Below, one piece after another: positions 1,971 to 61,798 of a stretch of DNA of 64,000 bases. The notes below the pieces were generated by a model. It had not been told where the DNA came from, did no database searches, and saw only the letters and a list, made by a program, of their open reading frames with translations. The position numbers and the translations under genes are program-made. The DNA lies in contig NC_042998.1 of NCBI RefSeq assembly GCF_006345805.1, positions 119,722,001 through 119,786,000 on the forward strand, given 5' to 3'. The stretch's first letter is position 1. Each line of letters starts with the position of its first letter. This stretch comes from Octopus sinensis. Taxonomy: Eukaryota.

Positions 1971-2124
1971 GACTCTATCACTACACATTTGTCACTCCTT
2001 TACCTTTTATCACCCCCCCCATTCCTTCTATCTTTTTTACACTCTAATACCTTTCTCTCTCTTTCGCCCTTTATCTCCCCACTCCTACTTTCAAATTATC
2101 TCCACTGACCACTAACTGGTCAAT

Positions 2125-4188: not shown

Positions 4189-4302
4189 GTATGGGTTGGA
4201 CGATTTGACTGGAGTCTGGGAAGCCAGGAGGCTGCACCAGGTTCCAGTCTGATCTGGCAGTGTTTCTACAGCTGGATGCCCTTCCTAACGCCAACCACTC
4301 CG
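4189..4302 (-). mobile_element. RTE 3'-UTR fragment
   Basis: Near-identical inverse of ~5993-6105. Confidence 0.75.
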
Positions 4303-4317
4303 TATGTATATATATAT

Positions 4318-5378: not shown

Positions 5379-5417
<39 letters not shown>
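4318..5417 (+). mobile_element. 5'-truncated CR1-clade LINE (RT C-half, open to stop at 5329) with 3' hairpin and (ATT)n tail
   Basis: SGVPQGSVLGPLLF, YAD(K), ERDLGI, VRPHLE, TRGH, FF.RV..WN.LP motifs. The catalytic YADD reads YADK. Hairpin tgtagtgc/gcactgta precedes the tail. Confidence 0.9.
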
Positions 5418-5426
<9 letters not shown>

Positions 5427-5446
5427 TATGTATATATATAAATATA

Positions 5447-5521
<75 letters not shown>

Positions 5522-5551
5522 GTATATATATATATATATATATATGTATAT

Positions 5552-6150
5552 TGCTTGCGAAGACCTGTTGGGGCAAGTGAAATCGGAATTGAAATTGAAC
5601 CAATCCTATGACTGGCACACGGCAATTACCAGGACCGCTGGACTGACTCCTGTGCAGGTGGCAAGTGAAAGAAAAACCATTTCGACCCTGTGCTTGAGGA
5701 GATCCATTGAGTCAAGTACACCAACATCAAAATCAATGGAAACTGCAGTTGTGATCCCTGTGCCGGTGGCACGTAAAAAGCACCATCTGAACGTGGCTGA
5801 TGCCAGCGCCGCCTATACTGGCTTCCGTGCCGGTGGCACGTAAAAAGCACCATCCGAATCGTGGCCGATGCCAGCGCCGCCTTGACTGGCTTCCGTGCCG
5901 GTGGCATGTAAAATGCACCAATCCGATCGTGGCCGTTGCCAGCCTCGCCTGGCACCTGTGCAGGTGGCACGTAAAAAGCACCCACTACACTCACGGAGTG
6001 GTTGGCGTTAGAAAGGGCATCCAGCTGTAGAAACACTGCCAGATCAGACTGGAGCCTGGTGCAGCCTTCTGGCTTCCCAGATCCCTGGTCGAACCGTCCA
6101 ACCTATGCTAGCATGGAGAACGGACGTTAAACGATGATGATGATGATGAT
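5552..6150 (+). mobile_element. RTE 3'-UTR with internal ~65-bp tandem units and (GAT)n tail, flanked by (TA)n
   Basis: Matches 63800-64000 and 37060-37415; repeated gccggtggcacgtaaaaagcacc. Confidence 0.85.
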
Positions 6151-6299
6151 ATATGTATATATGAATATATAGATGTATACGTATATATATATGTATATGT
6201 ATATGTATATACATATGTATACATATATATGTGTGTGTGTATATATTTTTATGTAGTTTCAACTGAAACCTATGGCCATGCTGGGGCACCGCCATTTTG

Positions 6300-9200: not shown

Positions 9201-9455
9201 GATGCAGCAAGGTCTCTCAGGAAAAAATTTTGCTTTTGTTTTGATGCAACAGGCCCCCAATATTTAGTAAAAATATTGGTGTGATGACTGTGCAGGTGTT
9301 CGGGGAGACCATCCCGTGTCTGTTGATTGTGGTGGTCTTGCGCAGTGGTGGACAAGGTTCCTTGTTTGCGCTTGATGTAGCCAGAGCAGCTACTGCACAA
9401 TCTTTTGCATCATGTACAAAAAAACTCAAGCTCAGCTGTTGCCTTGCACATAACA

Positions 9456-14681: not shown

Positions 14682-17066
14682 CATCACCATCATAATCATC
14701 GTTTAACGTCCGCTTTCCATGCTAGCATGGGTTGGATGATTTGACTGAGGACTGTCGAACAAGATGGCTGCACCAGACTCCAATCTCGATCTGGCAGAGT
14801 TTCTACAGCTGGATGCCCTTCCTAAGCACTCCGAGAGTGTAGTGGGTGCTTTTATATGCCACCTGCACAGGAGCCAGTCCAGCGGTACTGGCAACGACCT
14901 TGCTTGAATGTTTTTCCATGTGCCAGTGAGGTGATGCTGGTAACGATGACAATCAAATGGTGCTTTTTACATACCACCGACATGGAAGCCAGTTAGCCGC
15001 TCTGGCAACAATCCCGCTCGGATGGTGCTCTTAGCGTTCCACTAGCATGGATGCCAGTCATCGAATTTGATTTCAATTTCGATTTCACTTACCTCAACAA
15101 GTCTTCGCAAGCAGAGTTTAGTGTCCAATGAAGGAAAGGTATGCATAAGTGGGCTGGTTACACACCTGGCATAGGCCACAAGGTTATGGTCTCATTTGGC
15201 TTGCCGGGTCTTCTCAAGCACAGCATATTGCCAATAGTCTCAGTCACTAGTCATTGCCTCGTTGAGGCCTAATGTTTGAAGGTCGTGCTTCCTCACTTCA
15301 TCCCAGGTCTTACTGGGTCTACCTCTTCCATGGGTTCCCTCAACCGCTAGGGTGTGGCACTTTTTCACACAGCTATCCTCATCCATTCTTGCCACATGAC
15401 CATACCAATGCATTTGTCTCTCTTGCACACCACATCTGATGCTTCTTAGGTCCAACTTTTCTCTCAAGCTACTTACACTCTGTTGAGTATGCATACTGAC
15501 ATTACACAGCCATACTGGCTTCATTCCTTGCAAGCTTACGCATGTCCTCAGCAGTCACAGCCGATGTTTCACTGCCATGTAGCATGGCTGTTCGTACACA
15601 TGCGTCATACCTTTTACTCTGAGTGAGAGGCCCTTTGTCAACAGTAGAGGTAAGAACTCACTGAACTTTGCCCAGTCTATTCTTATTCTAGCAGCTACAC
15701 TTTCAGTGCACCCTCCCCCACTACTGACTTGGTCACCTAGATAACGGAAACTATCAACTACTTCTAGTTTTTCTCCCTGGAATGTGGCGGAAGTTGTTCT
15801 CTGCACATTTTCAGTGTTTATTGCTCCTGAACATCTGCCACATACAATAACTATCTTCCCAGTTAGCCTTTCTTTGATATGTGTCCATAGCTTACACTGG
15901 ATACATCTTATAGAGCTTCTACCTACGCTTTTTCTACAGATCGAGCAGGGCCATCTACCTGAAGGGGTTTGTAGTTTTCCTGCCTTCCTACTTATTTGGA
16001 GTTTGGTTTTTGCTAGGTTGACTCTAAGGCCCTTCAATTCTAATCCTTGTTTCCACACCTGAAACTTCTCAAGTTTTGATAGTCACTCAGCAATTATAGC
16101 AAGGTCATCAGCATAGAGGAGCTCCCATGGGCATCCTGTCTTGAATTTCTCCGTTATTGCCTGAAGGACTATGATAAATAGGAGGAGTCTGAGGACTGGG
16201 CCTTGGTGGACCCCTACTTGTACCCGGAATTCTTCAGTGTACTCGTTGCCAACCCTCTCCTTACTGACAGCGTCCCTGTACATGGTTTTCACAGCTCTCA
16301 CTAACCATTCATCTATCCCTAGTTTTCTCATTGACCACCAGATAAGGGATCGGGGGACCCTGTCAAAGGCTTTCTCCATGTCAGCAAAAGCCAGGTACAG
16401 AGGTTTATCTTTGTCTAGGTATTTCTCCTGCAGCTGTCTTACCAGAAATATAGCATCAGTGATGCTTTTCCCTTGCACGAACTGCATCTCATCTAAACTG
16501 ACTCTCTCCCTAATTAGTTGGGCTATGACCCTCTCCATGACCTACATTACCTGATCCAACAACTTGATACCTCAGTAATTATTTGTATCTAAAGCGTTAC
16601 CTTTACCTTTGTAGCAGTTGACTATAGTGCTGCTACACCAGTCATTTGGTATGACTCCTTCATGCATCACCTGCTTAATTATACAGGTGACTAGGAAGGC
16701 GGCGAGCTGGCAGAAACGTTAGCACGCCGGGTGAAATGCGTAGTCGTATTTCGTCTGCTGTTACGTTCTGAGTTCAAATTCCGCCGAGGCCAACTTTGCC
16801 TTTCATCCTTTCCGGGTCAATGAATTAAGTACCAGTTACGCACTGGGGTTGATATAATCGACTTAATCCATTTGTCTGTTCTTGTTTGTCCCCTCTGTGT
16901 TTATCCCCTTGTGGGTAGTAAAGAAATATATACAGGTAACTAAGCTTAGCCAACACTGCCAGATATTTTGAGCATCTCTGCAGTGATTCCTGATGGGCTG
17001 GGGGCTTTCCCTGTCTTCATACTCTCAATTGCTTTATCTACCAAGGTACTGTCAACTCGGATAGCT
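14682..17066 (-). mobile_element. 5'-truncated, frameshifted RTE LINE (RT + PHD insert + 3'UTR + tail)
   Basis: ORF pieces at 15240-17066 align colinearly to the 642-aa ORF; flanked by TA-rich microsatellite on both sides. Confidence 0.92.
16696..16928 (+). mobile_element. tRNA-derived SINE (Meta/MESC-like core) inserted in the RTE
   Basis: A box tggcagaaacgtt, B box gagttcaaattcc, core gcctttcatcctttccgggtc; ~15-bp TSD tatacaggtgactag / tatacaggtaactaa. Confidence 0.85.
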
Positions 17067-17989: not shown

Positions 17990-19520
17990 CCTTAACGAAA
18001 TGGCAATCATGACGAAAGCACAGGTTTGTTGCGATGATGTCACGGGAAAAAGTGTTCTTCCATGGTTCGACTGTGTAAATGTAGTCGTCAAGTTTATAGT
18101 GGTTCACTTTCAGTATATGTGCGTGTATCCGTAAGTATGTGAGTCTGTAAGTGTTTGTGTCTGTGTGTGTGTCTTCTGTCTCACTTAGTCCCTTCGCAGA
18201 TATTCAACTCTTCGTTTGCTTTTATTTTATCTCCGGCTTCAGGTAGGTGATAGAAAATTAATAATTCTTTAACTATTCACAAATTTCTGCCGATGCTTTA
18301 GAGAGTTTTTAATTTTTTTTTTACCTGCATTCAATTATTCTCTTTTTGCTATTTCATCTCACCTTGCCATCTGTTATTTTTCTCAAGTAGTGTTTTGCTG
18401 GATGTTTTTGCTGAATTGATTTAAGAATAAGATTCGCGTCAGTTGATAATGGCGCTTTTTAGTTAAACTCTAACTGCCTTCCTTGTTCACATAAAAATCT
18501 TGCATGCAACTTTGTTCATTTACATATACCTGCTTCATTTATTCTTTTTAGACTGTCTAGCAATATAAATTTCTAGCATAGACCAAGGTTTTTCGTTTAA
18601 CTTCATAGGAGATTTTTAAAAACGTATATAAATAGATACAAAATATTATGAAGACATATATAAATATGTGTGCATGTGTGTTATATGTAAATATGTGTAT
18701 ATTTTTATATAAATTTACATATTGTGTTGCTTTTAGTCTTACTGTAGGTTCTTCTTTCTCTTCATAACTATTCATAATTTATTCATTTGTAAAATAAAAG
18801 TGGCTGGTGGGGGTTTTGATATTTAGGCCATGCAAGCAGTCTTGTATATAGATGTTTCGTTATGTATCGCTTTGGTTGAAATTTGCAACATCACATAGAG
18901 ATACTCTATATATATATGTGTGTGTGTGTGCGCGCGTGTATATCCCATTTAACTGCGGTCCTGTTCTTTTTTCCATTGATATCTATCCGTTATATACATA
19001 GGATATATCTATGATATGTATTTATAAGTGTGCGTGTTTAACTGTGTTCGTTGCGCGTCATACCTCCTACATCTTAGCTTCTCCCTCCTCCCACGTTTGT
19101 TTATTTCCTCCTACCCGTTCTTTTCTACCTCCTCCTGTCACTACTACTAGCACAACTACGACGTTGTACAAGTTGCTAATTTACATAAATCTACTCTCTG
19201 CACTCCCTATTGGTCAGATCTTGGCGCCATCATTGTTTTCCTCTCAACCAGCCCTGAATCTTTGAATGCACGTTTTGCTGTCTTATTTAATAGCGACACG
19301 GTAAGAAATGATGCCTTTTTTCCTTAATTGTATATTTCTTTATGGTCTGACAGATTGGCTTGAGCATTTTTCTGACTGCAAACAATGAAAATAACGTCTG
19401 CTGTCCATCAGTATAGTGCTGAAATGACGTCAAAATGTGTGTCATTACGAAAGGTCATCTGCTGATTAGTATTCAAAATGGCTACTAGTCACGCTTGTTG
19501 CCGCCGTCGTTCTTCTTTTT
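17990..19520 (+). promoter_or_regulatory. Putative promoter and non-coding 5' exon region of the HP1BP3-like gene
   Basis: CpG retained relative to the gene body. Strong donors CAG|GTAGGT (18243) and ACG|GTAAGA (19301). ATTGG (CCAAT) boxes near 19209 and 19354, YY1-like ATGGCG/CGCCAT near 18449 and 19225, TGACGTCA (CRE) near 19426. Coding exon 1 has an acceptor 14 nt upstream of the ATG, so an upstream exon is required. Confidence 0.55.
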
Positions 19521-26309: not shown

Positions 26310-26778
26310 GTGCTGGTGCCACGCAAAAAGTGCTTGCGCCAGCATCACATAAAAAGTACTTGTGCCAGCGTCACATAAAAAGTACTTCTTCCAGTGTCAT
26401 ATAAAAAGTACTTGTGCCAGCGTCACGTAAAAAGTACTTGTGCCAGCGTTGCAGGAAAAGTACTTGCGCAAACGTCGCATAAAAAGTACTTCAGCCAGCA
26501 TTGCATAAAAAGTACTTCAGCCAGCATTGCATGAAAAGTACTTGCGCAAATGTCGCATAAAAAGTACTTCGGCCAGCATTGCATAAAAAGTACTTGCGCA
26601 AACGTCGCATAAAAAGTACTTCGGCCAGCATTGCATAAAAAGTACTTGCGCCAGCATCACATAAAAAGCACTTGCACCAGCGTCACATAAAAAGTACTTG
26701 CGCCAGTGTCACATAAAAAGCACTCATGCTGGTGCCTCACAAAGGGCACTTCTGCTAGTGCCATGTAAAAGCACCCAG
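26310..26778 (+). repeat. 26-bp minisatellite, ~18 units (cataaaaagtacttgcgccagcgtca)
   Basis: aaaaag core recurs every 26 bp from ~26325 to ~26767 and runs into an RTE-type 3' tail (26780-26922). Confidence 0.9.
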
Positions 26779-30309: not shown

Positions 30310-30638
30310 ATGCCAGCCATCAAACTCAAGAGAGTGACAGCAGAATACCTTGCTGAAAAGACTGCACAACAATCTAAAGCAGCTGCTGCAGCAAGCACAG
30401 CAGCATCCACTGCAACACCATCTGCAGCAGATGAAGATGCTTCAAACCGATCTGAATCCAGTACAGCAGCAGCTACTCCTACTAAAACAGACACAAAGAA
30501 TAAAGCCAAGCAGCCTACCACTGAGACAGCCAAATCAAGTGGAGCTGGGTCAAAGATTCTTTCTAGATTAGATGATACAGTTTTGACAGAAAAACGTAAA
30601 AGAAATGTTCCTGCTGCTGAGCTCAAGTTGATGGAATG
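30310..30638 (+). CDS. HP1BP3: HP1BP3-like coding exon 1 (MPAIKLKRVTAEY... Ala/Thr/Lys-rich N-terminus)
   Basis: Acceptor ttccag at 30295, ATG at 30310 in context gcaccATG, donor TG|gtttgt (phase 2). Confidence 0.85.
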
Positions 30639-32887
30639 GTTTGTCTTTTAATATTTCTTAATTTGAGAATGTTTGGTGGCAGAATTTAATAGAATGCTGG
30701 CCAGAGTGATTTCTTATATTTTACTACATTCTTTTTCTTTCTGATGATATTAACATTTCCTTTTTATTCATTTGAGTTCATCAAAATATACCAGTAGCAT
30801 ATAGATTCAATGTAATATACCATTAATACATTTGTGGCCTCGTACTAATGTAAGCAATGGAAATTTCCACATTTTCATTGTTAATTATACAACAAATTAT
30901 TCTGTAACCAATCCTTATTTTAATATATATTATTAGTAACATCTATTTTTGTCTACATTTAATTTATGTTTAATTTTCTGACATGCCTATAGTTCTCAAA
31001 TTTTACTAAAACTTCTGAATTCTTTATTTTATATCTTTCTTATTTGATACCAAACTATATATTTCACTGTAGTTATAGTTTTATGTTTTACACAAATTTT
31101 TCATTTTAGGCTTGATGATAACTTTGAAGAGCGAGACAGCACATCTATTTCAATGTTAATACTCTATGATTACTATGCCGAAACCTGTCAGTTAGATGCA
31201 TCCAAAGTTGTGGATATTCCTAACTTTAAAAAGGTAATAATTTGACTAATTTCTTAAATATCTAAATAAATGTCTGAGGTGAGTTTGTAATAAGATTTTT
31301 TTTGTTTTTTTTTTTACTACTGATCTCATTTTCATAGTAGAAACACTTTTTAAAATCTACACCATATTTTGATCAGGTGACCTCCAATTGTCATCAGGTG
31401 TCTTATTAGTGGAAGTATTCATTGTTCCACCCATGCTAGCAAGGAAGGTGGATGTTAAACGACGACGATGATGATGATGATTCATTGTTCCAGACTATAT
31501 TAGAAGTAGTAACTTTTACTTCTAAGTTAAGTCTGATAATGTCCTTTTCCTCTAGGTCACTAATGCATATATTTGTATAATATAAATGTATTGAAAAATC
31601 TTTCCTATCCGAAGACGAGGTTTACTGTTTTATCAGTTTGGGTTTACTGTTTACAATGAGGTTTACAGTTTACTAAGTTAGTTACTTGGAAGTGGATTCT
31701 GTTATACTTTATTATTGTCACCTATTTATCAATTCTACATTAGAGTATCTACACTGCCAATTTAATCCTAGATTTTCTTGATCTACATCAACAATTCATC
31801 TTATTAATTTTATTTAGATTTCTCTTTATTTTTACACAATACTTTAATTCTTTATCAAATTTGGTGTATTGCTTTGACCAATGTTTGAAGAATTATATGT
31901 ACTTGGCTACTTTGTAATGTTCTATATGTAGCCCTTAACTATCCTTGAAAGCACAAGCTTTTTTTTATTTTGTATTAAGCTATCCATATTGGTAGATTAT
32001 ACATAATCTAATGACTGTTCTTAAGAATTGAAAGATCATTGCGTAATACAGTAAATATTACTGTTGGAAATCTTATCTGAGATATGAAAGTCATTGATGG
32101 TGTATGAAATATCAATATATGATTCATGTGAAGATATATTATATATCACAGCTATAGAAGTTGGTGTCATCTGAGCTTAACACAGATGGCAGATAAACCA
32201 TTATTACTCCTGTTTCTATACAATCAATACATTAGGTATCTTATACCAATTCATTTAAGTTTCATTACCTAATTTTAACATTTAAGAGTTTCTTACTATT
32301 TGGTTTAATCATCATCATCATCATCGTTTAATGTCCACTTTCGATACTAGCATGGGTTGGACGATTTTGACTGAGGGCTGGCGAACCAGATGGCTCCTCT
32401 AGGCTCCAATCTTGATTTGGTAGAGTTTCTATAGCTGGATGCCCTTCCTAACGCCAACCACTCCGAGAGTGTAGTGGGTGCTTTTTACCCGCCGCCGGCA
32501 CGGGGGCCAGTAGGCGGTACTGGCAACGACCTCGCTCGAATCCTTTTACACATGCCACCAGCACAGGTGCCAGTAAGGTGACGTTGGTAACAATCACGCT
32601 CGAATGGTGCCCTTTTACGTGCCACTGGCACGGAAGCCAGTTGGCTGCTCTGGCAACGATCACACTCGGATGGTGCCCTTGGCACCCTACTAGCACAGGC
32701 ACAAGTGCCAGTAAGGCAACGCTGGTAACAATCACGCTCGAATGGTGCCCTTTAAGTGCCACCCGCACGGAAGCCAGTTAGCCGCTCTGTCAATGCTAGC
32801 ACAGACGCCAGTCATCAAGTTTGATTTTGATTTTGCGTTTGTAAAATCTTTAATGATCTATATATAGTTGTATGTTACTACTAGGTT

Positions 32888-32935
<48 letters not shown>

Positions 32936-35900
32936 GAGTATTTTTCTAGTTCAATGGCTTACATGTATTATAATGGTGTGTACTTGATTAACTTTGCATT
33001 TTACTTCTAGCATCATCAAATTGGATTATTTAAATGCTTTGTTTATATTTGATAAGTATGATTTTTAAATGGAATGTCTTACCTATATGATAAATTAATC
33101 AATGATTAATTAATATTTCAAATGACTAGATTGTGCGCCAGAAATTTGGAAAAGGTATTGGTATCAAGGAAACTTCGGCTTATAAAGGTTTGTTAAAAGA
33201 AAAGAAACCAAAGAAAAAACCAACAGTGCAAGCTGAGTCATTGCGATTAAAAATGAAAGACATTATTGATGAAGCTCTGAAAGAGTCAGGAAATCCTGTA
33301 TCCTTTTATTTCTATCTTTTCATTCATTCATATATTCCTTCAAGTATATATCTGTTTTACAAAACTTTTCGTGAATCAAACTGAGCAAACATATTTCATT
33401 TAATGAAACAGTAGAATCCAAGAAACAAGTTGTCAAGTAGAGTAAGTTAGTTTGCTGTGAAGAGGAAAAACTTGAAATTGTGATTAGTTAACACTTCAAT
33501 AACTTAAGAACCTGCAAGCTGTATGTATTGGTTATTGCTGGGTGTTTTTACAGGAGTACTGTATGGCTGTTCTTTGTTACATGTTACACATCTATTAGTT
33601 ATTAGATTACACATCTGTGGCAAGTGTAGTTAGTAATTTATAGCACTGAGACAAGTATATAGTTGACAAATCATAGTACTGAGACACATGATAGTTATTA
33701 AGTTATATTGTACAGTGGTGCTTATACAACTACAACATGAAAAGTTATTAAATCATACTATGACATATGTATGCTTTATTAAGTTGTAGAAAGTTGACAC
33801 ATATATAAAATTTTGTTAGCTATAAAAATGTTATAGAAACAAGAATAACTGTTCCACTGAAGAGACTACTAGCATAGCTAGTTACTGAACTTTGATGATT
33901 GAGCAAGTGCTGCTAACTTCAATATTATTGTAATATATATTTGAGTGTGATTTTTGGGAGATGTGATTGCTATTTTTAGCAGATTGTGCACCTACACAGA
34001 TATATTCCCTCAAAAAAGACCAAAACAGGAAGTGATGACTGCTGTTGACACTAAGTGAAGTGAAAGTTGTTGCAAGTGGTATCTAAAAGCATATTATAGA
34101 TTTCTCTCACTGAGAGCTTATTGTTTATCCTGTTGTGTCTGCTACCTAGTTGCTGTCTTCACCACAACAGTATTTTTGTAGTACTTAGTACCTGTTGACT
34201 GACCCAAAACTGTGATGCAGTTGTGTAGCGAACCTTTGATAAAATACATTTTGGTCATGACCATCCTGTCTTTTTCTGTATTTATAAGTAGATTGTCCAT
34301 AGTTATAACAATAACTAGATTGTTCATCTTTCTCAAAGTTGGCTGTGATACAGTTTCAATACTTGTTTTTAAGCTTTCCCCTTATTCATATTAATGACTC
34401 TTTGGAACCAACATGAACACCAACAATTTTTATCATCACTCAGTGTTTTCTGTTTGGTTGACAAAAAAAAAATAATACTGTAAATTGAGCTAACTTTCCC
34501 CATGCTGGCTCTGTTTCTGCTGTGGAAGGGTGGGGCATATGTTACTTTGGTGGGAACATTGTAAAATGAATTATATGAAGGATGAAGATTAAATAATGAA
34601 TTAAGTTAAAAGGTTACCAATAATACCAAAGTAATATGAATCATTGATTATATCAAACATGATTGTTATACACTGTCAGTTTACTTGTGGTTTTACTTAA
34701 CAAAGTGGTTCAGAAAAAAGGCGTTCGTTTTCATTGGTTGAAACAGTATATTGGGGCAAAATATCCTGCCCTCCGGGTTGATTTAAAACCAGGCCTTCTA
34801 AAGGTTGCTCTTGAGCGAGGTGTTCGATTTGGTTCCGTTCAATTGGTAAGTGATTCATTCTTTCCTACTTATCATCCCTCAATTCTTGTTCTTCATTATA
34901 CTCACCCCACCCATTCATTTCTGATCTCTAACAATCTATTACTCACCCTATTCTTGCAACTTCTACTCAGTTCTCCTGTTCCCACTCACTTTGTACCTTG
35001 AGGGTCCACCTCAACACCTCATCACCATTATTTTTATCTCTTTCCATCTCTATCCCAGGCACTCCCACTCTCTACTTTTATGTGAGGAACTATGTAGTTC
35101 CTCTACAGCAAGAAGCCTGTTCTTCTCTGACTCCATCTCTTAGGCTTTAACCCTTTATCTCCTAGCATAAAGCTGCTTCCCTGTCTACTGTAGTCCCATT
35201 CAGTCGAAAGGGATCTTATTTTTGCAAGCTGCATGGCAATCTTTTTAGTGCTGGTACCATAAAAACCACTCATTATGTGCTTAAATGTGATTGGTATTAG
35301 CCAGGAGACCCAGCTGTAGAAATCACTGCAAGCAGATATGGGAATACAATGCAGTCCTTGGACCCACTGGATCCTTTCAAACCATTCAGCCGTGCCAGCA
35401 TTGAATATGGATCATTAAATGGTGATGATGATTGTTGTTTTTAGAGTAGTAAATGACAGACTTGGTAGGCCACCAGATAAAATGCCTTGCAGTTTTTAGT
35501 TACATCATCATCATCATCATCATCATTTAGCGTCCGTTTTCCATGCTAGCATGGGTTGGACGGTTCTACTGGGGTCTGTGAAGCCAGAAGGCTTCATCAG
35601 GCCCAGTCAAATCTGGCAGTGTTTCTACGGCTGGATGCCCTTCCTAACGCCAACATCTTTGTATATTCTAAGTTCAAACCCTAATAGACCTGACTTAACA
35701 TTCACGTTTCAGGGTTTATAAAATAGTACTATAATATACTGGGAGTTAATTCATTCTTTGAAGTTAAGTCCTTTTTTATTTTGATTCCATCATATTAGTT
35801 GGAATTATTTGAAATAAGCAGATGAAGTGGGAAGATAGCAAAGTGACCAATGATATGTTGTGAAAAGAGACTGTTATTGTATGTATAGTAATAATTACAA

Positions 35901-38900
35901 AGTAAAGGAATAAAGAGTTGTTAAAAACTGTAAGGTACTAGACTTCATGTGTTGAAGTATTTTGTCTGGTTCTTAACATACAAATTTCATACGGCCTTTC
36001 ATTCATTCGATCAGGTCTTGTATGCACCATGCAGTACAATGTGTCTTTGAAGATATACTGAAGTGCAATTCATTAGTAAATAGGAAATGTCTATAGATGA
36101 CTTAGAGTTTGCCAATAGAATGAGTGACCTCAGTTTAATCAAAGAGATAAAATCAAATCCCCTAACCACGCATGTCTCTCTCTTTACTTGTGGGCACAGG
36201 CATGGCTTTAGAAGATCACTTCACGAGTATACTGTTTTGGGTTGAATCACATTGCACTGCATGGTACTTTGAGAAAGTACCTTTTATCATAATCTTTGGG
36301 TCAACCAATGCTGTGTCAGAGTTAACTGGATGTTAGAATTAATCCTTCACCCAGTTTAACATCATCGCTTGTCCCTTGAGTATTTTTTGTAGAGTCCTTT
36401 CTGTTACAAGCATTCTGGCTAGCTGTCTAGACTAACAAATAACTTCCTCCTCTCACTAAGCCATTAAAGTAAAAACTTCTTAAGTGTTGACAAGAATAGC
36501 CTGGGCAAAGTTCAGGGAGCTCCTTCATCTGCTGGCAACTAAGGGCCTCTCGCTCAGAGTGAAAAGTAGACTGTATGATGCATGTGTGTGAACTGCCATG
36601 CTACATGGCAGTGAAACATGGGCCATGACTGCTGAGGACATGCATAGGCTTGAAAGAAATGAAGCTAGTATGATCTGCTAGATGTGTTATGTCAGTGTGC
36701 ATACACAACAGTGTAAGTGCCCTGAGAGATAAGTTGGGCATAAGAAGCATCAAGTGTGGTGTGCAAAAGAGGCGTCTGTGCTGGTATGGTCATGTGTTAT
36801 GTATGAATGAAGACAGCTGTGTGAGGAAGTGCTACTCCCTTGACTGTAGAAGGAATCTGTGGAAGAAGTAGACCCAAGAAGACTTTGGATGAGGTGATGA
36901 AGCATGACCATCGAACATTGGGCCTCACAGAGGCAATGACAGGAGACCGGGACCATTGGAGATATGCTGTGATTGAGAAAACCTGGCAAGTAAAGTAAGA
37001 TTGCAGCCACACATGTCCGGCCCTGTTAAGAATACCCCTGATGCGTTGGGCGATATGATATGCTTGAGAAGACCTGTTGAGTCAAGTAAAACCAATATCG
37101 TAGCTGTGGCCAGTGCCCCCTGACTGGCTCTCATGCTGGTGGCACATAAAAAGCACCATCCGAACGTGGTCGATGCCAGGTCCACCTGACTGGCTCTTGT
37201 ACCGGTGGGCACGTAAAAACCACCAACCAATTGTGGCCAATGCCAGTATCTACAGACTGGCTCTTATGCTGGTGGCGTGTAAAAAGCACCATCTGAATGT
37301 GTAAAAACATTGCCGGATCAGATTGGAGCCTGGTGCAACCACTGGCTCTCCAGACCTGTCAAACCATCCAACCCATGTCAGCATGGAAAGCGGACGTTAG
37401 ACGAAGATGATGATGATCTGGACTATTTATGGGTTTTGTCTACAGAATTAAATTAGTTGGAATTCTGTTTGTATGAGTTAATTTATTCAAGTGGTTTGTC
37501 TCAAATGTGAGAGTGACTTGTATCAGAACTATTAAGATATCAGTTAAAGAGTTGGTATTTCAAATACTAATAATAGCAAGACCACTCAGAGCGCAAACCT
37601 CCATCAAGGCAACACCAATGTCCTCTCAACAATTAGCCAGAGATGATTTTTAAAATGAAAATATCTGAAATAAACTCAATTGCCCTCACCAATGAGAGTA
37701 GTCAGGTTCAAAAATGAACCTGACTGCTCTTAAAAATTAAGTTAAAAAACAGGAAAAATAATCCAGAATCCTTGTCCTGTACTGGATCAATCCTAAAATC
37801 TAATCAGTTTGTGCCAGTCATGAGGCCTAACATTCCTGAAAGTTTCATCTGAATCTATCCAGTGGTTCTTGAGATATCTTGTCAATGGACAAACAAACGA
37901 ACACGACTGAAAACAACACCTCCACTTTCGCTAAGGCGGAGGTAATAATTCTAATTTTGAGGGGAGTGAACAGGTCAATTACATCGAACCCTAATACATG
38001 ACAAGTACATTTTATCGACACTGAAAGGGTGCTAGGCAAAGTTGGCCTCAGTGGGATTTGAACTCGGAATTAAAGAGTTGAAACAAATACCATAAAGCAT
38101 ACTTTCAAATACTCTAATGATTCTGCAAGCTTGCTGGCTTATCAGTTTCAAGTTTTGGCACAAAGCCAGCAAGCAGTTTTAGGGAAAGAAATTAGTCAAT
38201 TGCATTGGTCCCTTCTTATCGGCCCTGAAAAGATGAATGACAAAGAAGAAATGCGCTAAGCATTTTGTTTGATGCTCTAAGGATAATTATCATCATTATT
38301 TAGCATCTGCTTTCCATACTGGCATGGGTTAGACTGTTTGACTGAAATTTGTAAGCTGGAGAGCTGCACCAGGTCCCTATCTGATTTGCATGGTTTCTAC
38401 AGCTAGATGCCCTTCCTAATGCCAACCACTCCAAGAATGTAATGGGTGCTTTTTACATGCCACTGGTATGAAGTGCCAGTTACGTGGCACCAGCATCAGC
38501 TTGGCTTGATGAGTCTTCTCAAGCACAGCATATCACCAAAGGTCTCAGTCACTTATCACCTCTGTGAGGCCTAATATTCAAAGGGTGTTTTTTATGTGCC
38601 TGTTGACATCAACATTGGCTATGACTATGGTTTCACTTGGCTTGATAAGTCTTCTCAAGCATGGCATATCGCCAAAGGTCTTGATCACTTGTCATTGCCT
38701 CCATGAGGCTCAGTGTTTGAAGATCATGTTTTCCTGGATCTACTTCTTCCACAGGTTTCCTCCACAGTTTATGACAATAATCAAAATAACAAAACTCCAG
38801 GCTAGACTGGATAATGAATGACAATCTCCACTGTTATCTTTATGTGCCAGTGTATGACATTTAACACTGAGTATCAATCTCCTGTATACATTTATGTATG

Positions 38901-41900
38901 TTTATAATATATAACTGATCTACACTGTTACCTGAGTATTTATATAACTTCTGTACTAAATTCTTCTTTTTCAGGTTCGAGGAATTGGTTATTGTGGCTT
39001 CTATCGTCTTCCCTTGCCAGATAGCACCGAAGAAGCCAAAGTTGTCAAATCTAAGAAAAAAGAAAGTGGATCCGAAGATAAAAAAAGTGATGGTACTGCT
39101 GATGAAACTGCTAAATCTGAAGTAATTAGAACAGTTTCAATTTTATTCATTTCTAATCTTTCAATTGATAGAATTAGCTGAGTGGATTAGCATCAGAGAT
39201 TGTTCCATTGTCACTTAGGACAGAACAGTATGCAGATAGAAAGTATGGGGAACAAGCTTTGGGTTGTCTGGGAATGTTGTTTGCAAAAGACTGGTGTCTT
39301 ATCCCAAGATTTATCTTGTTGTTCATTTGATGCTAATGGATGTGATCTGAGGGCACAATCAGCAACTTTCTGTATTCTATCATGGTTAATTAGTGCAATT
39401 TATTCCTTTAAGATTGTTAAAAAACTTTTTATGTATAGAGACATCCACATTTCCATCCAACTACAATTATTGTTATTGTTTGGTTGCTATTTCTAGTAGA
39501 TCGTGCAGCCATAGAAGTACCCTCATTGGCTCTTTTGTTTTCCAGTAGGTGACAACAGTTTAGTGGTAATAGTTTAGCAAATGTGGTTGCTGAATAAACT
39601 GAATGTGTTGATATTGTATCTTTTGTACAGTGATTACCATGTAAAAATATATGCTCTTTGTAAACAATTTTTAGTCCTAATTTTTCTAAGGAAAAACATG
39701 GCTGTTACAGTTTAATTCTGATCCCCTTTAAACTTGAATCCTTGTATTCGTGTAAAAGTATGTTTTCGCTCCTGTAGCAGGTACCAGAGAACAAATGTCT
39801 TTGCTTCACATACCTTTTCAACAATGATTTGGATAGAATTGTGACCATTTCATGCATTCTCTCATAATTTCATTTCCCCCTCCCCTTCAAAACAAAAGCA
39901 TTATAGGTCATCAAGGAAGTTTCTACATATGTTCTTGACCTGCTAGAAATAGCAGCTAAATCTCCTAAACGTCAAACTACCATATTCTCAAAAAATTACA
40001 TTAGATAAATTAGCTTTACATCTACTGGTCTGATTAAAATACAGAAATGATCTCAGCTGAATGCCTTTACTTGTTGCTCTGCTGAATAAGGACTGACCAA
40101 GGATTAAACAGCAACATCAGAAGAAAATAAAATCCCTAAGTACCTCTGTGAAAAATACTTGAACAGTGGTTGAATGACAGACATACTACAGTTGTCATCC
40201 AAGCTTATCAATTCATATCCCACTTTAGCTGTTACATTAACTCATTAGACAAGATATTCAACTCTGCTTCAGGATTAATGCCTTTTCTTTCATTTAGCCT
40301 AGTCACTGGGAAATTTGGGGGGGAGTAATGTGAACACATTGGCACTTTTGGTATCTGTGAGACTATTGTCTCACACAACAGAATAAAATTTGTGTGTTTC
40401 TTTGTTGTTTTTACTGAGCCACCCAACACAGTCCATGGTGTAAATTACCTGAGACCATTTTATTTATTTTGTGTTGTCCAACATTTTTTAATAATCTTTT
40501 CAACCCCACCTCTTTTTTCTTTTTTTTGTTCTACTCCTTTTTTAAAATTATACAATATTATATAAGCTTCAGATTTAGTAATAGCAAATCCAAATTATTT
40601 TGAAATACAACTAAGAGGTGGACTTTGAATAGACTGTTTCAATTTCCAAGTATCTAAACAATGTCAAACAGCTGTACTGGAAGCAGTGATTTCTAGAAAG
40701 AAAATGAAACAAAGGCCTTTAAAATATTTCTCTTCCAAAATTTTGAGAACAAACTGCATCTCATCAGTCATCTTCATGATTAAAACCCATGGATTATTTA
40801 CTTTGGTTCATTCCACTTGAAGTATTTCATATAAGAACTAATTGCTGCACAAAATGTAAACAAAGGGAAGAGGATAAACTGCACGAAATTAATTATTTTT
40901 GTCATAATGATAAGTGACATTTAGTAAGCTATATAATATCATATTGACTAATAACTCATTTTATGCAGTTATATTTCAATAAAATTTAAATGATTTTCAA
41001 GTTTTACCTGTAATTAAAGTAGATTTGAGACAAAAATTCTGGAAAAGATTTATGTTAGAACCTGTTGCTAAGTCATTTGAAACACTTGGGTGTATTTTAG
41101 TTAGCAATATAGTAACAAAAGGGTTAAGATAGAAGTTTTTGAAAGATGTTTTATTTTGTTTGTTATTTTAATATCAGGATGCTGGTGAGAACGGTAGTGA
41201 TGAGAAAAAAGATGATGGCGATAAAGCCACTGATGAAACTGAGAAAAAGACCAGGAAGAGAAAGTCCACTAAAGATGATTCTAGTAAGACAGCTAAAAAG
41301 TCAAGGAAAGCGAAGAAAGGTGATTAAATTGGTGTTTTTTATAAAGTCTAAGGTGTGTTTAATGTCAGTGACCATATTAAATGGTTTCTGATAATCATGC
41401 TGGATTTCATTTTAGAAGATTTAAGATACAGTTTCAATCCCATTAACACCTTGGACATGTGTAGCCTTGGGTTAACCAAAGTCCTGTGAGTTAAATTTAG
41501 TAAAGACAAGTCCATTGGATGTAGGTGGGGTTGCAGAATCGGTGCATCGTATAAAAATAACTTGTGGTATTTTCTTACTTCCCTTTAAGTCCAAGTCAAC
41601 TTTGCCTGTCTTCCAACCAATCAACAAAAAGCCTTGTAGGTGGTACCTCAGTGTTGCTGTAGTCTAACGATTAAAAGCAGTCAATGCATAAAAGAATGTG
41701 AACTCATGGTTTCCATATTTAAAAATGTGTACATTCTGGTAACTAATACACTCAGCTATTTCTTCATTTGATTCCTTTAAAATATTGCTCCATTTATGTA
41801 GTTACATTTCCTCCTGTTACATCTCATTTTGGATTTGATGAACATGTTTGTTCTTCAACTTAGCTGCCAAAACTTCTGTTTTATTATCAAACTGTCCTAG

Positions 41901-44900
41901 AGCTTTAAATATTTGGCAGTAACCAAGATGTCGGAGCACTGCTGAATTGACACATCTTTCATTCCTTTTTGGTGGTTCATGTCTTTGGAATGAAATGTTG
42001 CCAGAATAATATATATTTAAACAAATGCACCAATAGAGAGCAGTGTCTCTATTAAACTAAATAGTTATTTAAACTGGAATAAGTTCAGTTGTTGAGGTGA
42101 TAAATAGTTCCAGTACTTCTATCCAAATATATAACAGAAGACAAACTCATTAATTTGTTGATAGTTGCTATTTGTTACTGTTTTGTTTCTAATTCATGAA
42201 AACGTTTACATATATGTGTTTGTCTCATGCACATCACAATGTAAATTAGAACTGAAATAAATTAAAATATATTTACACACATAGTTTTATAATGTTAATT
42301 AGATGACTATTAAAGATTAGACTGCTGATATATTTGTAGCAGTACCCTCACTGATTAATAGTTTTGAGTTAAAATATGTTGTCTTAAAAGATCAGCATAT
42401 GTTTAGTTTATAACTAATAACATAATTCTGTTGTGCAGGAAAAAAGAAAAAGAAGCCAAAACATAGTACAGAGCTGAAGATTGAAGACACATTTCCGCTA
42501 GCCATTACTTTCATGTCAGAACCTAAAGAAGCATCAGTGTCTCGGATTAAGCGTTATATCCAAGACTTTTATCCAGATGTCAATGCTGAAGTGAGGTAAG
42601 ATTAATTAATTTAATGAAATTATTAAAAATTTTTCTTTGCAGTTACAGCAAGTTCAAGAGAGCAAGAGAATAAGTATGATTCTTGTTAGTGAAGATTGAC
42701 TGGATTTAATTGATTTTTCAATTGACTTTTAAGTTCAGCTTAAGCTGTGAATTTCCCTTGAAAAAACAAGAAGTTACAACATCCCATTTTCCCTGCTCCC
42801 TAAAAGTGTAAGAAAATAATATCCTAATAAATATTGATACATTTCAGAACGAAAGCTTAATTAGTTTATTTTGAAATGTATCAATATTTATTTGGATATT
42901 ATTTTCCTTATTTCACTGTTATGGTAATTTCTTGATATTATCAATTATATTTGGATATTGTTGGAGCAAACATTTTCTGTATCTATCAGCTGTATTGTAA
43001 GGTTAAAGTTTTTTCTTAATTAAATATGTTTTACCTTGAGGCACAATTCAACAGCCCCTATGAAATAACCTAAGTGTGAAATAAAAGGATATATGTGTAT
43101 CTTGACAAGAAGTAATTTTGTTTTTCAAAATATTGTTGAATATCTAAAACATCTGCAGTTACAAGGTTTTTCCAAGCTGGCATGGGTTGGACAGTTTGAC
43201 AGGACCTGGCCAACCAGAGAGTTGTCTGTTTTGGTATGGTTTTTCACAGCTCAATGCCCTTCCTAACACCAACCACTTTACAGTGTGTGTTGGGTGATTC
43301 TTATTCCCTCCACAAATCTTAGTTACAATAATATTTCACAGATAATTAGATAACAAATAATAATTATGCCATTTATTTCAACAGCATATCAATAATGTGT
43401 AGTATGTCTGTTTCTCCATGTAGGTGTGGGTTGGACAGGTCTTTTTTACAGTCAGATGTCCTTCCTGATACCAACTCTTTTAGTTGTCCTTTGTGCTAGC
43501 ATGGAAAAAGTGTGTTTATTCTAAAATTCAGGATATACATGATCTATATATATGTGTTATTCATTGTCAGGCTAAAGAAAGCTCTAGAAAAAGGTGTTGA
43601 GCGAGGATTATGGGAACAAGTGACTGGAACAGGAGCTTCTGGAACTTTCAGACTTCTTATTGATGAATTCAATCCTGGAAAATGTGAGTAAATAATTCAG
43701 ACTTTATTTATCTGAGACTCTTTATATCATTGTACTTTCTGATATAAAAGTTATAAAAGTTGATATACTTTATTTAATGTGTACATATTATATATTGTTT
43801 CTATATGTATGGCCAGTTATCATACAGCTTTGATAAAAAGTTATTTGCCAGTTTCAGCTGCAAAAATGAAATGTCAGGAATATAGATAATTTATGTATAC
43901 AAGCCCAGTATTTCTAATAAAATCATACTGCTTATGTGTTTCAATTAATTCTGAAAATAATCATGAATTTAAAGAGATTTAGTAAATTAACTTTTTCATT
44001 ATTAAGCTAGTGCTTGGAACTTAACTTAAAAATAAAGTTCTTAAAATGAGATGTTTTATACCCATAGTATCAGGTGGATTTACATAAAAAAAATGATTAA
44101 CACTTTATTTAATTGCTGAACTTGTTTCAGTGTGCAACTATCAAATATAATCAGTAATTTTTTAATGTTGTTTATCATTGGGCCAGCTGTTTTCAAGCAA
44201 ATCTGTGGTCAGAGCATTCAAGTTGTGACCCTTCTATCATAGGCCTACTTAGGTACGTTTGAAGGGAATTTGACAACTATTTCTAGCAAGGTTGTGAATA
44301 ACCACATGGAAGTTCTTTTGTTGACTTAGAGTGTGCATCATGTTAATTATTTTGATGCTATACATCTAAGTTCAATCAGCACAACAAATGTTTGGTGTTT
44401 CACAGAACTAAGAAGATATTCATTGATATATGAACTATATTTCTCTGTTGTTATTGTTGTTTAGTACCAGTTTAGCTCTGATTGGTTAAAAGTATTCCAG
44501 CCATGATCTCATGCTGCCTGTTTTTTAGACATATTGTATCTAGGACTACATTATACAATGTGTCCTTCCTGTTTTTAAGATATAAAGATGTAATTTGAAG
44601 GAATTTTGCCTACTATTTCTTGACAGTAGAGTGACTACAAGAAAGCACTTTTGTTCAATATAGTTTTAAAATTTCGTGTAGTAACACTGAAAGAAAATGC
44701 TTTCATGCAATGACTAAATCTCTGTTATGTTATTTATCATTCAGGTGAAACTGTGGAAGACATGGTATGTCTGGCAATTGTTGCTACTCATGAACCAAAA
44801 CAGGCTTCTGCTCTGTTAATCAAGCGTTATGTGCAAGAGTTTCATCAAGATTTCAACATTGAGACCCGACCACATCTGTTTAAGAATGCAATTAGTAGAG

Positions 44901-45626
44901 CTGTTAAGAAAAACATCATCAAGTAATTACTGTTTCTTTTCACTCTATTCTGTGTATACTTTTGTGCTGTACTGCTGAATTGCATTCCATCTAATCTCTC
45001 TTCTGTATTGAAGTCATTTTGAAAGGTATGATTATTACAACTGCTATTTTGTCAGTGCAAGAAATGATGAATCAGTCTGGGATACATGTGGTGTGCACTT
45101 GTGTATGGCTGTGTGGATGCAGCATGGTTGAATTGTTAAGAAATTTGCTTCACAGTCATACAGATCACATAGTCTTATGATGAGTCTGCCTGAAAATATG
45201 TTGTGAGGAAATGTCTGTGCAATACCAACTCCTTTACACCATAATGTAATGAGTATATTGTTCAGTTCATTGAACAACATCAAAATTCAATGTTGAAATA
45301 AGTGAAAATCCTTTTACTTTTGCTATAATTAATGTAGACTTATAAAATTATGTTTTTAGCTGTTTGTTGCTTAATATACTAAAAGGTCATTTTATTTCCT
45401 TTTTCTAAGGCAATTATCTGGTATTGGTGCCAGTGGTACATTTCAACTATTACTACAATATGGACCGTCCCCTGCCATGTTGGCTGGAAATCAAGAGGCA
45501 GATGATGTTGGCCAGGGTAGCAGTGACGATGATGAACCAGCCGAACAGTATTATGTCCGACCAACCAAGTCTCGTGGCCGAGGGCGCGGTGTTAAAATGA
45601 TTATTGGCAAGAAAGCCAAGCGATGA
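30310..45626 (+). CDS. HP1BP3: HP1-binding protein 3-like chromatin protein (RFX-like winged helix + 3 H15 linker-histone domains), 10 coding exons, 568 aa
   Basis: Hand-spliced join(30310-30638,31110-31233,33130-33297,34714-34845,38975-39121,41178-41319,42439-42595,43571-43683,44745-44922,45410-45626) = 1707 nt. All introns are GT..AG, phases are consistent, there are no internal stops, and it ends in TGA. Domain 2 (KIEDTFPLAITFMSEPKEASVSRIKRYIQDFYP...LKKALEKGVERGLWEQVTGTGASGTFRL) closely resembles vertebrate HP1BP3 H15 domains as I recall them (EPKEAS, GxGASGTF). Confidence 0.9.
31110..31233 (+). CDS. HP1BP3: HP1BP3-like coding exon 2 (RFX-like: WLDDNFEERDSTSISMLILYDYYAETCQLDASKVVDIPNFKK)
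   Basis: ttttag acceptor, AAG|gtaata donor, frame continuous with exons 1 and 3. Confidence 0.85.
31430..31479 (+). mobile_element. 50-bp extreme 5'-truncated RTE insertion
   Basis: cccatgctagc...gttaaacgacgacgatgatgat flanked by the 13-bp TSD attcattgttcca (31417-31429, 31480-31492). Confidence 0.85.
32309..32835 (-). mobile_element. RTE 3'-UTR copy with tandem units (intronic)
   Basis: (CAT)n tail plus homology to 14682-15100. Confidence 0.88.
33130..33297 (+). CDS. HP1BP3: HP1BP3-like coding exon 3 (IVRQKFGKG...LKMKDIIDEALKESGNP)
   Basis: ctag acceptor; donor CCT|gtatcctttt (U12-type); 56 codons, phase 0-0. Confidence 0.85.
33298..34713 (+). other. U12-type (minor spliceosome) GT-AG intron, 1416 bp
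   Basis: 5' splice site GTATCCTTT; branch-like TTTTACTTAAC at 34691-34701, about 12 nt before the AG; no polypyrimidine tract. Confidence 0.85.
34714..34845 (+). CDS. HP1BP3: HP1BP3-like coding exon 4 (H15 domain 1 core: KKGVRFHWLKQYIGAKYP...LLKVALERGV)
   Basis: cag acceptor preceded by a U12-type branch site; TTG|gtaagt donor. Confidence 0.87.
35195..35750. mobile_element. Old RTE tail (+, 35195-35432) and a SINE (~35445-35750) interrupted by a younger RTE tail (-, 35504-35655)
   Basis: Homology to other RTE tails; short acatc duplication at the nested insertion. Confidence 0.65.
36490..37416 (+). mobile_element. 5'-truncated RTE LINE (ORF C-terminus + 3'UTR + tail), decayed
   Basis: RIAWAKFRELL...LHGSETW...; colinear with 63220-64000. 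Confidence 0.9.
37577..37946 (-). mobile_element. HINE/DINE-1-like non-autonomous Helentron element
   Basis: Subterminal inverted repeats acctcc(a/g)...ggaggt at both ends, an internal palindrome acctccactttcgctaaggcggaggt, a terminal hairpin and a (caaa)n microsatellite. Confidence 0.55.
37955..38140 (-). mobile_element. tRNA-derived SINE (same group as 16696-16928)
   Basis: Inverse of B box (ggatttgaactc) and core (aggcaaagttggcctc). Confidence 0.7.
38290..38770 (-). mobile_element. CpG-decayed RTE 3' end with internal duplication
   Basis: ggcttgat(g/a)agtcttctcaagca occurs twice (~38503, ~38640); ORF end at 38690-38770. Confidence 0.8.
38975..39121 (+). CDS. HP1BP3: HP1BP3-like coding exon 5 (VRGIGYCGFYRLP wing + charged linker)
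   Basis: Polypyrimidine tract + tcag acceptor; GAA|gtaatt donor; 49 codons. Confidence 0.87.
41178..41319 (+). CDS. HP1BP3: HP1BP3-like coding exon 6 (Asp/Lys-rich linker)
   Basis: atcag acceptor; AAG|gtgatt donor (phase 1); purine-rich open frame. Confidence 0.82.
42439..42595 (+). CDS. HP1BP3: HP1BP3-like coding exon 7 (H15 domain 2, first half)
   Basis: gtgcag acceptor; AG|gtaaga donor; encodes KIEDTFPLAITFMSEPKEASVSRIKRYI. Confidence 0.9.
43571..43683 (+). CDS. HP1BP3: HP1BP3-like coding exon 8 (H15 domain 2, second half)
   Basis: gtcag acceptor; T|gtgagt donor; encodes LKKALEKGVERGLWEQVTGTGASGTFRL. Confidence 0.9.
44745..44922 (+). CDS. HP1BP3: HP1BP3-like coding exon 9 (H15 domain 3)
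   Basis: ttcag acceptor; AA|gtaatt donor; encodes VEDMVCLAIVATHEPKQASALLIKRYV...RPHLFKNAISRAV. Confidence 0.9.
45410..45626 (+). CDS. HP1BP3: HP1BP3-like coding exon 10 (QLSGIGASGTFQL, acidic patch, RGRGRG basic tail, stop)
   Basis: Pyrimidine tract + taag acceptor; TGA at 45624-45626. Confidence 0.88.
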
Positions 45627-51445: not shown

Positions 51446-52684
51446 CGAGGGGCATTCAATAAGTAATGCCCCTGACCCACTTCCCATAGCAGTAGAGCAA
51501 TGAAACTTGGCACAGTTATTAGTCTTTTTCTACATAGGAACCACACACAGTTATGCATTTCTCCAATCGTTTGATGCAGCTCTGGAAACCGTTTTTGTAG
51601 AAGACCGCAGCTTGGTCCTCCAACCACGATGTTACTTCAGAAATCAAGGCTGCAACATCTGGGAAACGCTTTCCTTTCAAAAACAACTTCATGGCTGGGA
51701 AGAGGTGAAAATCAGAGGGTGCAAGGTCAGGAGTGTAGGGGGATGGGGGAGGAGTTCATAGCCGCACGCCTGTCCTGATCTGGCAGCAAGCGTGTTGTGG
51801 ACCGGAGCGTTGTCCTGCAGGAGGAGGATGCCTTTGCTGATCTTGCCCCGCCTCTTGATTTTGATAGCTTCTCTTAATTTCCTCAAAAGTGAAGCATAAT
51901 AGGCTTCTGTAATTGGTATCCTTTGCCAGGAAATCTGTCATCACTACTCCGTCCTGGTCCCAGAAGACTGTGAGCATGACCTTGCCTTCTTTGGAGGAGG
52001 TGAGTCACGGTGCTTCCACTGCATTGACTGGGCTTTGGTCTCTGGATCATAGTGATGGACCCAGGTTTCATCCTGTGTAATCAGTCTTTTGAAAAATTTT
52101 GACTCATCTTGGCACATCTCCAAATTCATCCTCGAGCACTCGACGCGTTCTTGCTCCTGGAAAGGTGTGAGCAACCTGGGAATCCATCTGGCAGACACCT
52201 TTTGCATATGCAAATGGTCATGAATGATAGTTTCCACAGACCCGGTACTAATCTTGACCTCATGGGCTATTTGGTGAATAGTTATGCGTCGATCTTCCAA
52301 AATGGCAGCCTCATCAATGGCAGAAGGGGGGGCGACCAGATCTGGGAGCTGTTTCCACAGAGTTCCGACCATGTTTGAATTCACGATGCCAGCGTTTTAC
52401 AAGGTCATATGATGGGGCATCATCATAAGTTACTTTCATTTCATCAAAAGTCTCCCGTGGTGTGCGTCCTTTCAAATACAAAAAACCGATCACTGCTCAA
52501 CACTCAACAGGCTCCATTTCACACTTGACTCAGTTCAAACACCTGTAAATCAGAAACCACAATTACTTCAGAGCTGTAATTTACCACTTAATCTATAGAG
52601 ATATAAATAATTGTACATGCAAAATTTCAGCTAGATTGTTTCAACTGCAAGTGGGTCAGGGGCATTACTTATGAACGTCCCTCG
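51446..52684 (-). mobile_element. Full-length but frameshifted mariner (irritans/Hsmar2-like), 1239 bp
   Basis: ~37-bp TIRs cgaggggcattcaataagtaatgcccctgacccactt, TA target duplications (51444-45, 52685-86); WIPRLLT, TQDETWVHHYDPETK, LQDNAPVH; ATG at 52517. Confidence 0.93.
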
Positions 52685-61620: not shown

Positions 61621-61798
61621 TATCTGGCTGTACTACAAGTGTAATAAGGAGTGATGTTTGTGTCAAGCCCCTAACATTCAATCAGCCATGAGAATGGCCA
61701 TATTCTTTCAGGCATTTCTTGTACTTATTGATTTTTTGAATATATATATATTAGTGTTGACATTAGTATAAGGTGTAATACTGATTATATTAATCATC

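Follow-up and report, generated by a model that had tools for sequence, protein, structure and literature searches.

An RFX-type domain that appears to have lost its wing precedes the three linker-histone domains of octopus HP1BP3

An RFX-type domain in octopus HP1BP3

A 64,000-nt stretch of the Octopus sinensis genome (NC_042998.1), called the window below and used for all coordinates, contains the intron-rich octopus HP1BP3 gene on the forward strand. Ahead of three linker-histone (H15) domains, the 568-residue product of this gene carries a domain (residues 102-169) that is almost certainly derived from the DNA-binding domain of RFX transcription factors and devoid of its wing. The best explanation as a whole, which we rate somewhat above even, is that a wingless domain derived from an RFX4/6-class gene was gained before molluscs, annelids and brachiopods diverged and makes sequence-independent contact with chromatin.

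In the domain searches, the octopus protein was represented by P0004 of O. bimaculoides, which is identical to the gene model at 565 of 569 positions and shows no difference in the domain interior. Pfam matches P0004 to PF02257 (31.5 bits, cut-off 27; E 2.8e-7; profile positions 4-55 of 79) and also finds three Linker_histone stretches (PF00538). Exon 2 alone matches PF02257 at E 6.4e-4, below the Pfam cut-off. When a domain profile built from 19 orthologues is compared with the PDB, RFX1, RFX5 and ARID2 are the sole matches with E<0.001 (4 of 6 rows; E 2.8e-5 to 7.5e-4); the best PDB sequence match of the protein is human HP1BP3 (2rqp, E 8.2e-7). The best of five AlphaFold models of the domain (pLDDT 85.9, pTM 0.74; the other four 64.6-77.3) has helices at 11-23, 34-47 and 55-66 and strands at 24-26 and 70-72, giving a predicted fold of three helices and a small sheet with no hairpin. 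In a fold search against 48,161 chains, the best match is RFX5 (Z 8.8, rmsd 1.5, 65 residues aligned) and the next best RFX1 (Z 7.1, rmsd 1.5, 59 of 76 aligned), ahead of a chain at Z 5.5; ARID2 is absent from the fold-search rows. In the full-length model, four domains stand apart, joined by linkers of low confidence (pTM 0.35), and the N-terminal region from residue 101 to 170 has a pLDDT of 68-85 per block. In the ESM Atlas, the domain matches RFX clusters at 0.83 and 0.75 and the Lingula protein chordate HP1BP3 clusters at 0.75-0.76, values under 0.9 that serve as leads only. Homodimer prediction for the domain scored 0.00 in two runs, in which the alignment was not used, and gives no indication for or against a dimer.

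The agreement of profile, model and fold search bears out the initial annotation, which had placed an RFX-like domain with a retained helical core ahead of three H15 domains. An artefact of gene prediction or of a weak profile match is hardly credible: most orthologues do fall under the Pfam cut-off (5/22 matches pass in one set and 1/8 in another), but the splice junctions are present in 4/4 runs, three independent methods (Pfam, domain profile and fold search) point to RFX, and the domain is conserved across three phyla.

Gene structure and splicing

The gene has 10 coding exons (30310-45626, all GT-AG), and the protein of the gene model is identical to the database protein P0202, annotated as octopus HP1BP3. 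Its features are given below; here and throughout, counts out of 42 refer to orthologous domains that were picked by hand, with fragments and near-duplicates (P0004, P0041, P0043, P0154, P0196) left out.

30310..30638 (+), coding exon 1, residues 1-110: N-terminal MPAIKL, low-complexity Ala/Ser/Thr linker, basic arm and most of helix 1, with a phase-2 end in the Trp110 codon
30313..30327 (+), PAIKL, residues 2-6: the sole PxVxL-like match in the protein
30592..30612 (+), basic arm KRKRNVP, residues 95-101: K95, R96 and R98 each in 42/42 orthologues
31110..31233 (+), exon 2, 124 nt, residues 110-151: end of helix 1, strand 1, helix 2 and start of helix 3
33130..33297 (+), exon 3, residues 152-207: remaining helix 3, wing-deletion junction, GIGIKETSAY strand, basic linker and start of the first H15 domain
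33151..33156 (+), K159/G160 junction: site of 17 extra residues (the wing) and of the third intron in RFX4/6 proteins
33241..39013 (+), H15 domain GD1, residues 189-264: exons 3, 4 (34714-34845) and 5 (38975-39121)
41178..41319 (+), exon 6: charged disordered linker
42474..43664 (+), H15 domain GD2, residues 360-431: exons 7 (42439-42595) and 8 (43571-43683)
44745..45452 (+), H15 domain GD3, residues 438-511: exons 9 (44745-44922) and 10
45410..45626 (+), exon 10: end of GD3, acidic tract, short basic tail and stop

All 9 junctions are found in contigs of 4/4 runs from 4 studies at depths of 94-480 (the runs are presumed to be RNA, without a DNA-run control). Exons 1, 2 and 3 are thus spliced together, as the initial annotation had it, and the peptide quoted there corresponds to residues 107-172. 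Its exon numbering holds in part: the three exons are joined as claimed, but exon 1 is only the first coding exon. Beyond 30295 on the 5′ side, the contigs carry sequence foreign to the DNA there, so that a further exon probably lies upstream. An alternative annotation (P0203) has two putative upstream exons at 9284-9346 and 18188-18244, the first without a clean donor at its border. Transcribed 3′ sequence reaches at least 46500. A synonymous C>T at 31179, in the Ala133 codon, occurs in 3/4 runs. Because of the lengths of exon 2 (124 nt) and of exons 2 and 3 together (292 nt), neither can be skipped in frame, and the RFX-type domain therefore cannot be spliced out without a frameshift.

Loss of the wing

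Domains of the RFX4/6 type have the order IRQKFPK, 17 residues that include RRLGTRG and SKYHYY, and then GIGIKE[TS]SxY. In the octopus protein, VRQKFGK is joined directly to GIGIKETSAY. BLASTP against one RFX6-like protein opens a single 17-residue gap, HHalign against 21 RFX4/6-type domains opens a single gap of the same length at the same place (98.7%), and the wing segment measures 17 residues in 38/38 canonical domains that match the search pattern. A ten-residue post-wing profile scores best right after K159 in 41/42 orthologues, with a mean of +13.5 bits and negative scores in every other register. YKGL was considered as a remnant of the RFX YYG strand and rejected, since that register scores -17.4 bits, as opposed to the positive score of GIGIKETSAY. 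The RRLGTRG motif, which the initial annotation had reported as lost, is present in 0/42 orthologous domains. The wing itself had been described there as shortened; both alignments instead indicate that the whole 17-residue segment is gone. It follows that the proposed four-winged-helix protein does have four globular domains, but that three of these are winged and one is wingless. A single genomic deletion would have taken out the wing together with the third intron that lies inside it in RFX4/6 genes.

Nine DNA-contact residues have been defined in RFX1 (PMC12311785). Six of these (R57, R58, G60, R62, K66 and Y67) fall within the 17-residue gap. The helix-3 contacts fare better, with Lys or Arg at the K45 position in 41/42 orthologues and at the R48 position in 32/42, and the octopus domain keeps two of the nine, K151 and R154.

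Comparison with RFX factors and ARID2

The domain shares with the RFX4/RFX6 DNA-binding domain (PF02257; structures RFX1 1dp7 and RFX5 8zjr) the helical core, the 124-nt exon with both of its introns, the post-wing GIGIKE[TS]SxY and the helix-3 Lys and Arg. It differs by the deleted wing, the loss of R19 and an identity of only ~30%, and the octopus protein differs further by its fusion to linker-histone domains and by having no B, C or dimerisation domain. In the Pfam search of P0004, BCD_RFX gave no match at E<=1, ARID, ARM and zinc-finger domains were not found, and the remainder of the protein consists of H15 domains and linkers. Identity to the RFX6-like protein is 24/79 (30%, one pair) and structural identities are 26-30%. 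The criteria for RFX factors in PMC2873420 are the nine contact residues and at least 40% identity; with two of the nine contacts and identities under 40%, the octopus protein falls outside the RFX transcription factors.

ARID2/BAF200, of the PBAF complex, is similar in that a degenerate RFX domain is found in a chromatin protein. It differs in keeping a wing-length loop, in its second intron and in its ARID, ARM and zinc-finger context, and its RFX-like domain is reported to keep five of the nine contacts (PMC2873420). PMC5838959 describes forms of RFX8 and RFX4 in which the domain is shortened or missing, but no deletion of the wing.

Origin of the domain

The donor was probably an RFX4/6-class gene, where class names were assigned from sequence likeness. 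The octopus genome has three genes of this class (G000 contigs C5, C16 and C3792). In 3/3, the domain exon has the 124-nt length of exon 2 and the same borders, a phase-2 start in a Trp codon and a phase-0 end behind the FGK lysine. The 62-nt exon that follows stops at a third intron, which interrupts the wing. Exon borders differ from these in both the RFX1-3-class gene (C4) and the RFX5/7-class gene (C15). An RFX-like domain on C28, downstream of an ARID exon and taken by us to be that of ARID2, shares the Trp intron only and retains the wing-length loop; this probable ARID2, a gene separate from HP1BP3, lies at C28:1522272-1590000 (L023, L033-L035). Since it is common to ARID2 and RFX4/6, the phase-2 Trp intron may be ancient. 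Seven exon-sized open reading frames from other genomes start and stop at the same two points, and three further frames show one border and are taken as read-through into the same introns. Under a uniform model, the chance of two shared introns is 1.5e-4, a value that makes the case look too strong, as ARID2 shares one. The retention of introns argues for duplication at the DNA level rather than a retrocopy, and a partial duplication of an RFX4/6-class gene is the likely source of the domain.

The residues flanking the wing point in the same direction. A post-wing E/D-x-S signature occurs in 23/25 HP1BP3 domains, 20/23 RFX4/6, 1/4 RFX1-3 and 0/2 RFX5/7 domains and 8/21 five-domain rows, and sides with RFX4/6. 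At the QKF position, K or Q is found in 16/25 HP1BP3 domains, 23/23 RFX4/6 domains (partly by class definition) and 0/27 rows of the other three classes. In the tree, the 25 HP1BP3 domains lie on one side of a branch (SH-aLRT 90), which is consistent with one origin.

It is improbable that the donor was instead ARID2, a five-domain RFX protein or a member of another RFX class. In favour of such a donor, RFX5 is the top fold match, ARID2 has the Trp intron, and by summed score five-domain proteins come out near the top of the profile search, some of them with a similar post-wing segment as counted above. Moreover, the donor tree, built on 66 columns, supports the sister group of the HP1BP3 domains at only 66, sampling is thin for the RFX5/7 and RFX1-3 classes, and of the two shared introns a single one is diagnostic. 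Parallel gain is also easier for this intron, given its AAG|G-like position. Nevertheless, both introns are common only to RFX4/6-class genes among the classes compared (RFX4/6, RFX1-3, RFX5/7 and ARID2), the K/Q residue is confined to HP1BP3 and RFX4/6, and a strict first-look search found no five-domain RFX gene in this genome.

Three side observations concern RFX genes. The five-domain family (P0050-P0054, P0057, P0058 and P0061) comprises proteins of 870-1090 residues that contain as many as five RFX domains, of which the central one is degenerate. In the RFX4-like gene on C5 (L018), the post-wing exon leaves the expected frame after GIGV, probably owing to an assembly indel. RFX1-like genes on the small contigs C6303, C8459 and C8703 (L002-L004) and C10213 and C11958 (L007, L008) have introns of 25-26 nt (measured in three), unlike octopus genes, and possibly come from a dicyemid parasite in the assembly; dicyemids have tiny introns and live in octopus kidneys.

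Distribution and age of the fusion

The architecture is not peculiar to octopus: the survey of orthologues finds it in molluscs, annelids and a brachiopod. Mollusc carriers are the cephalopods Octopus and Argonauta; the bivalves Solemya, three scallops, Mercenaria, Mactra, Mya and Ostrea; and the gastropods three Haliotis, Elysia, Batillaria, Bulinus and Patella. The others are the brachiopod Lingula and the annelids Owenia and Dimorphilus. Of the 62 H15-type proteins retrieved, 50 carry the RFX-like domain completely or partially. The remaining 12 are five three-H15 proteins, five four-H15 proteins from amphioxus, and two N-terminally incomplete proteins of mollusc type. A profile search of 1.84 billion representatives returned 112 matches, and the H15-bearing ones with a species name are all lophotrochozoan. 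Amphioxus HP1BP3 (P0034, P0037, P0038, P0042 and P0044) is similar in having four globular domains in a row, but all four are H15 and none is RFX-like. The fusion was likely gained before the split of molluscs, annelids and brachiopods.

A fusion older than Lophotrochozoa that was lost in chordates and other lines is quite unlikely. Such an origin would accommodate the carriers of unassigned phylum (P0020, P0024, P0047, P0059, P0060, P0062 and P0066), and the HP1BP3 sample is one without vertebrate full-length or non-bilaterian sequences. However, every carrier with a species name, among the 112 matches and the other retrieved sets, is a mollusc, annelid or brachiopod, and the five amphioxus and five three-H15 proteins have no such domain.

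Precomputed Pfam tags for PF02257 and PF00538 occur together on some records (3/4 in one set, 10/32 in another), so that the pairing is already visible in databases; the names of the tagged records give only HP1BP3 or H15 protein. A literature search that covered neither supplements nor subscription journals found no published description of an RFX and H15 fusion. The octopus protein is thus a real and probably undescribed variant of HP1BP3.

Comparison with vertebrate HP1BP3

Vertebrate HP1BP3 (HP1-BP74; PMC4344522; 2rqp) likewise has three H15 domains followed by an acidic tract and a basic tail. In a tree of H15 domains made without full-length vertebrate sequences, GD2 and GD3 group with those of three-H15 proteins (88/85 and 93/99) and the amphioxus domains have no supported place. 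The acidic tract is present in the octopus protein, and its basic tail, at ~25 residues versus 100 in vertebrate HP1BP3, is short; the tail is long in abalone, clams and Lingula. The vertebrate N-terminal region is described in PMC4344522 as Glu-rich and unstructured. The contrast drawn in the initial annotation, which had called the vertebrate N-terminus only unstructured, rests on this description rather than on aligned sequences. In octopus, by contrast, the N-terminal region contains the predicted folded RFX-derived domain, and PxVxL is absent between GD1 and GD2, where vertebrates have PQVKL (V257). At the N-terminus, MPAIKLK is exact in 17/42 orthologues, and residues 1-20 are conserved across molluscs (64% identity). 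PAIKL is a possible HP1-binding motif, shifted from the vertebrate position.

Possible function

The wing that reads DNA sequence is missing, and the domain is therefore likely a non-specific chromatin grip and not a sequence reader; we give non-specific DNA contact an even chance of being its main role. In RFX1, it is the wing that sits in the major groove, with helix 3 placed against the minor groove (PMC4333399). The helix-3 basic face of the octopus domain (K151, R154, K156 and K159; mean charge +2.8) and a new, invariant K-R-x-R arm (+3.0) would hold the DNA backbone or minor groove, and the DNA held would be linker DNA beside a nucleosome bound by the H15 domains. This fourth contact, sequence-independent and of low affinity, would add avidity and positioning to H15 binding, and the domain would not read X-boxes. 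Its role would match that of the disordered N-terminal region of vertebrate HP1BP3, deletion of which is reported to lower chromatin binding or residence (PMC4344522). An analogy may be the RFX-like domain of ARID2, tentatively placed on extranucleosomal DNA (10.1101/2022.05.20.492795). Identity to 22 non-cephalopod orthologues is 45% in the domain and 11% and 25% in the linkers, which indicates that the domain is under constraint. The basic arm K-R-K-R may be a DNA-binding arm or a nuclear localisation signal. A likeness between the arm and the KKTIPxW motif of domain-less proteins was set aside, its complexity being too low to score.

Several observations weigh against this explanation. Foldseek also ranks RFX5 and RFX1 as its first two matches, but only at E 5.8e-3 and 4.6e-2, and it returned no match at E<=0.001 for either the domain or the full-length protein. 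The domain core is net acidic, with a mean charge of -3.3 (+1.9 with the arm and tail; canonical RFX +4.7), and the K-R-K-R arm may be only an import signal. R19 is Arg in 0/42 orthologues (Met in octopus), and only 1/42 retains the glycine that precedes K45 and is invariant in RFX, so that DNA affinity may be slight. Furthermore, the identity of the domain is below the 57-60% of the H15 domains, and the 42 orthologue rows are related, not independent.

Tentatively, a domain of the same origin could instead be a protein-binding module, with the acidic helix 1-helix 2 face binding histones or a partner and the arm acting as an import signal. This alternative, which we consider possible but the less probable, gains from the loss of seven of the nine DNA contacts and from the negative mean charges of helix 1/strand 1 (-2.2) and helix 2 (-1.9). 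In RFX5, an acidic patch at E102 contacts H2A/H2B (PMC12311785), and octopus has Glu at this position. Across the orthologues, however, this position is Glu in only 11/42 and Lys in 16, for which reason it was rejected as a conserved histone contact, and conservation on the surface is highest at basic residues (K95, R96, R98, K151 and K159) and at S167.

It is doubtful, and clearly less probable than protein binding, that helix 3 has returned to the major groove, where it would read a new sequence and steer the linker histone to chosen sites. Most winged-helix proteins are described as reading DNA with helix 3 (PMC4333399), the RFX glycine position is Asn in 20/42 orthologues with Lys or Arg next to it in 41/42, and the invariant K-R-x-R arm could supply minor-groove contacts. 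Yet Asn is found in under half, nine other residues occur at that position, and the other outward positions of helix 3 vary, unlike those of a base-reading helix. We accordingly see little likelihood of a lophotrochozoan targeted linker histone, in which the captured RFX4/6 domain, its wing lost, would use helix 3 and the basic arm to recognise certain sequences or DNA shapes.

Other elements in the window

Remnants of LINE-type reverse transcriptases lie at 2116-9409, 15555-16541, 36600-37000 and 61772-63727, and include a fragment in intron 4 and a 651-residue open frame at the window end. A mariner-like transposase fragment is found at 51944-52396; like the LINE-type remnants, it was named by eye from its translation. 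A tandem array of ~29-nt units occupies 26320-26725.

Implications

Octopus HP1BP3 offers a traceable case in which the DNA-binding domain of a transcription factor became part of a chromatin architectural protein, with the donor class marked by introns and the specificity element removed exactly. As a natural wingless RFX domain, it provides material to probe helix 3 on its own. HP1BP3 is not of the vertebrate style everywhere, combining RFX with three H15 domains in lophotrochozoans and having four H15 domains in amphioxus. If the domain were sequence-selective, the protein would count as a linker histone that brings its own module for targeting. Finally, the fusion offers a genomic character of a rare kind by which spiralian phyla may be placed.

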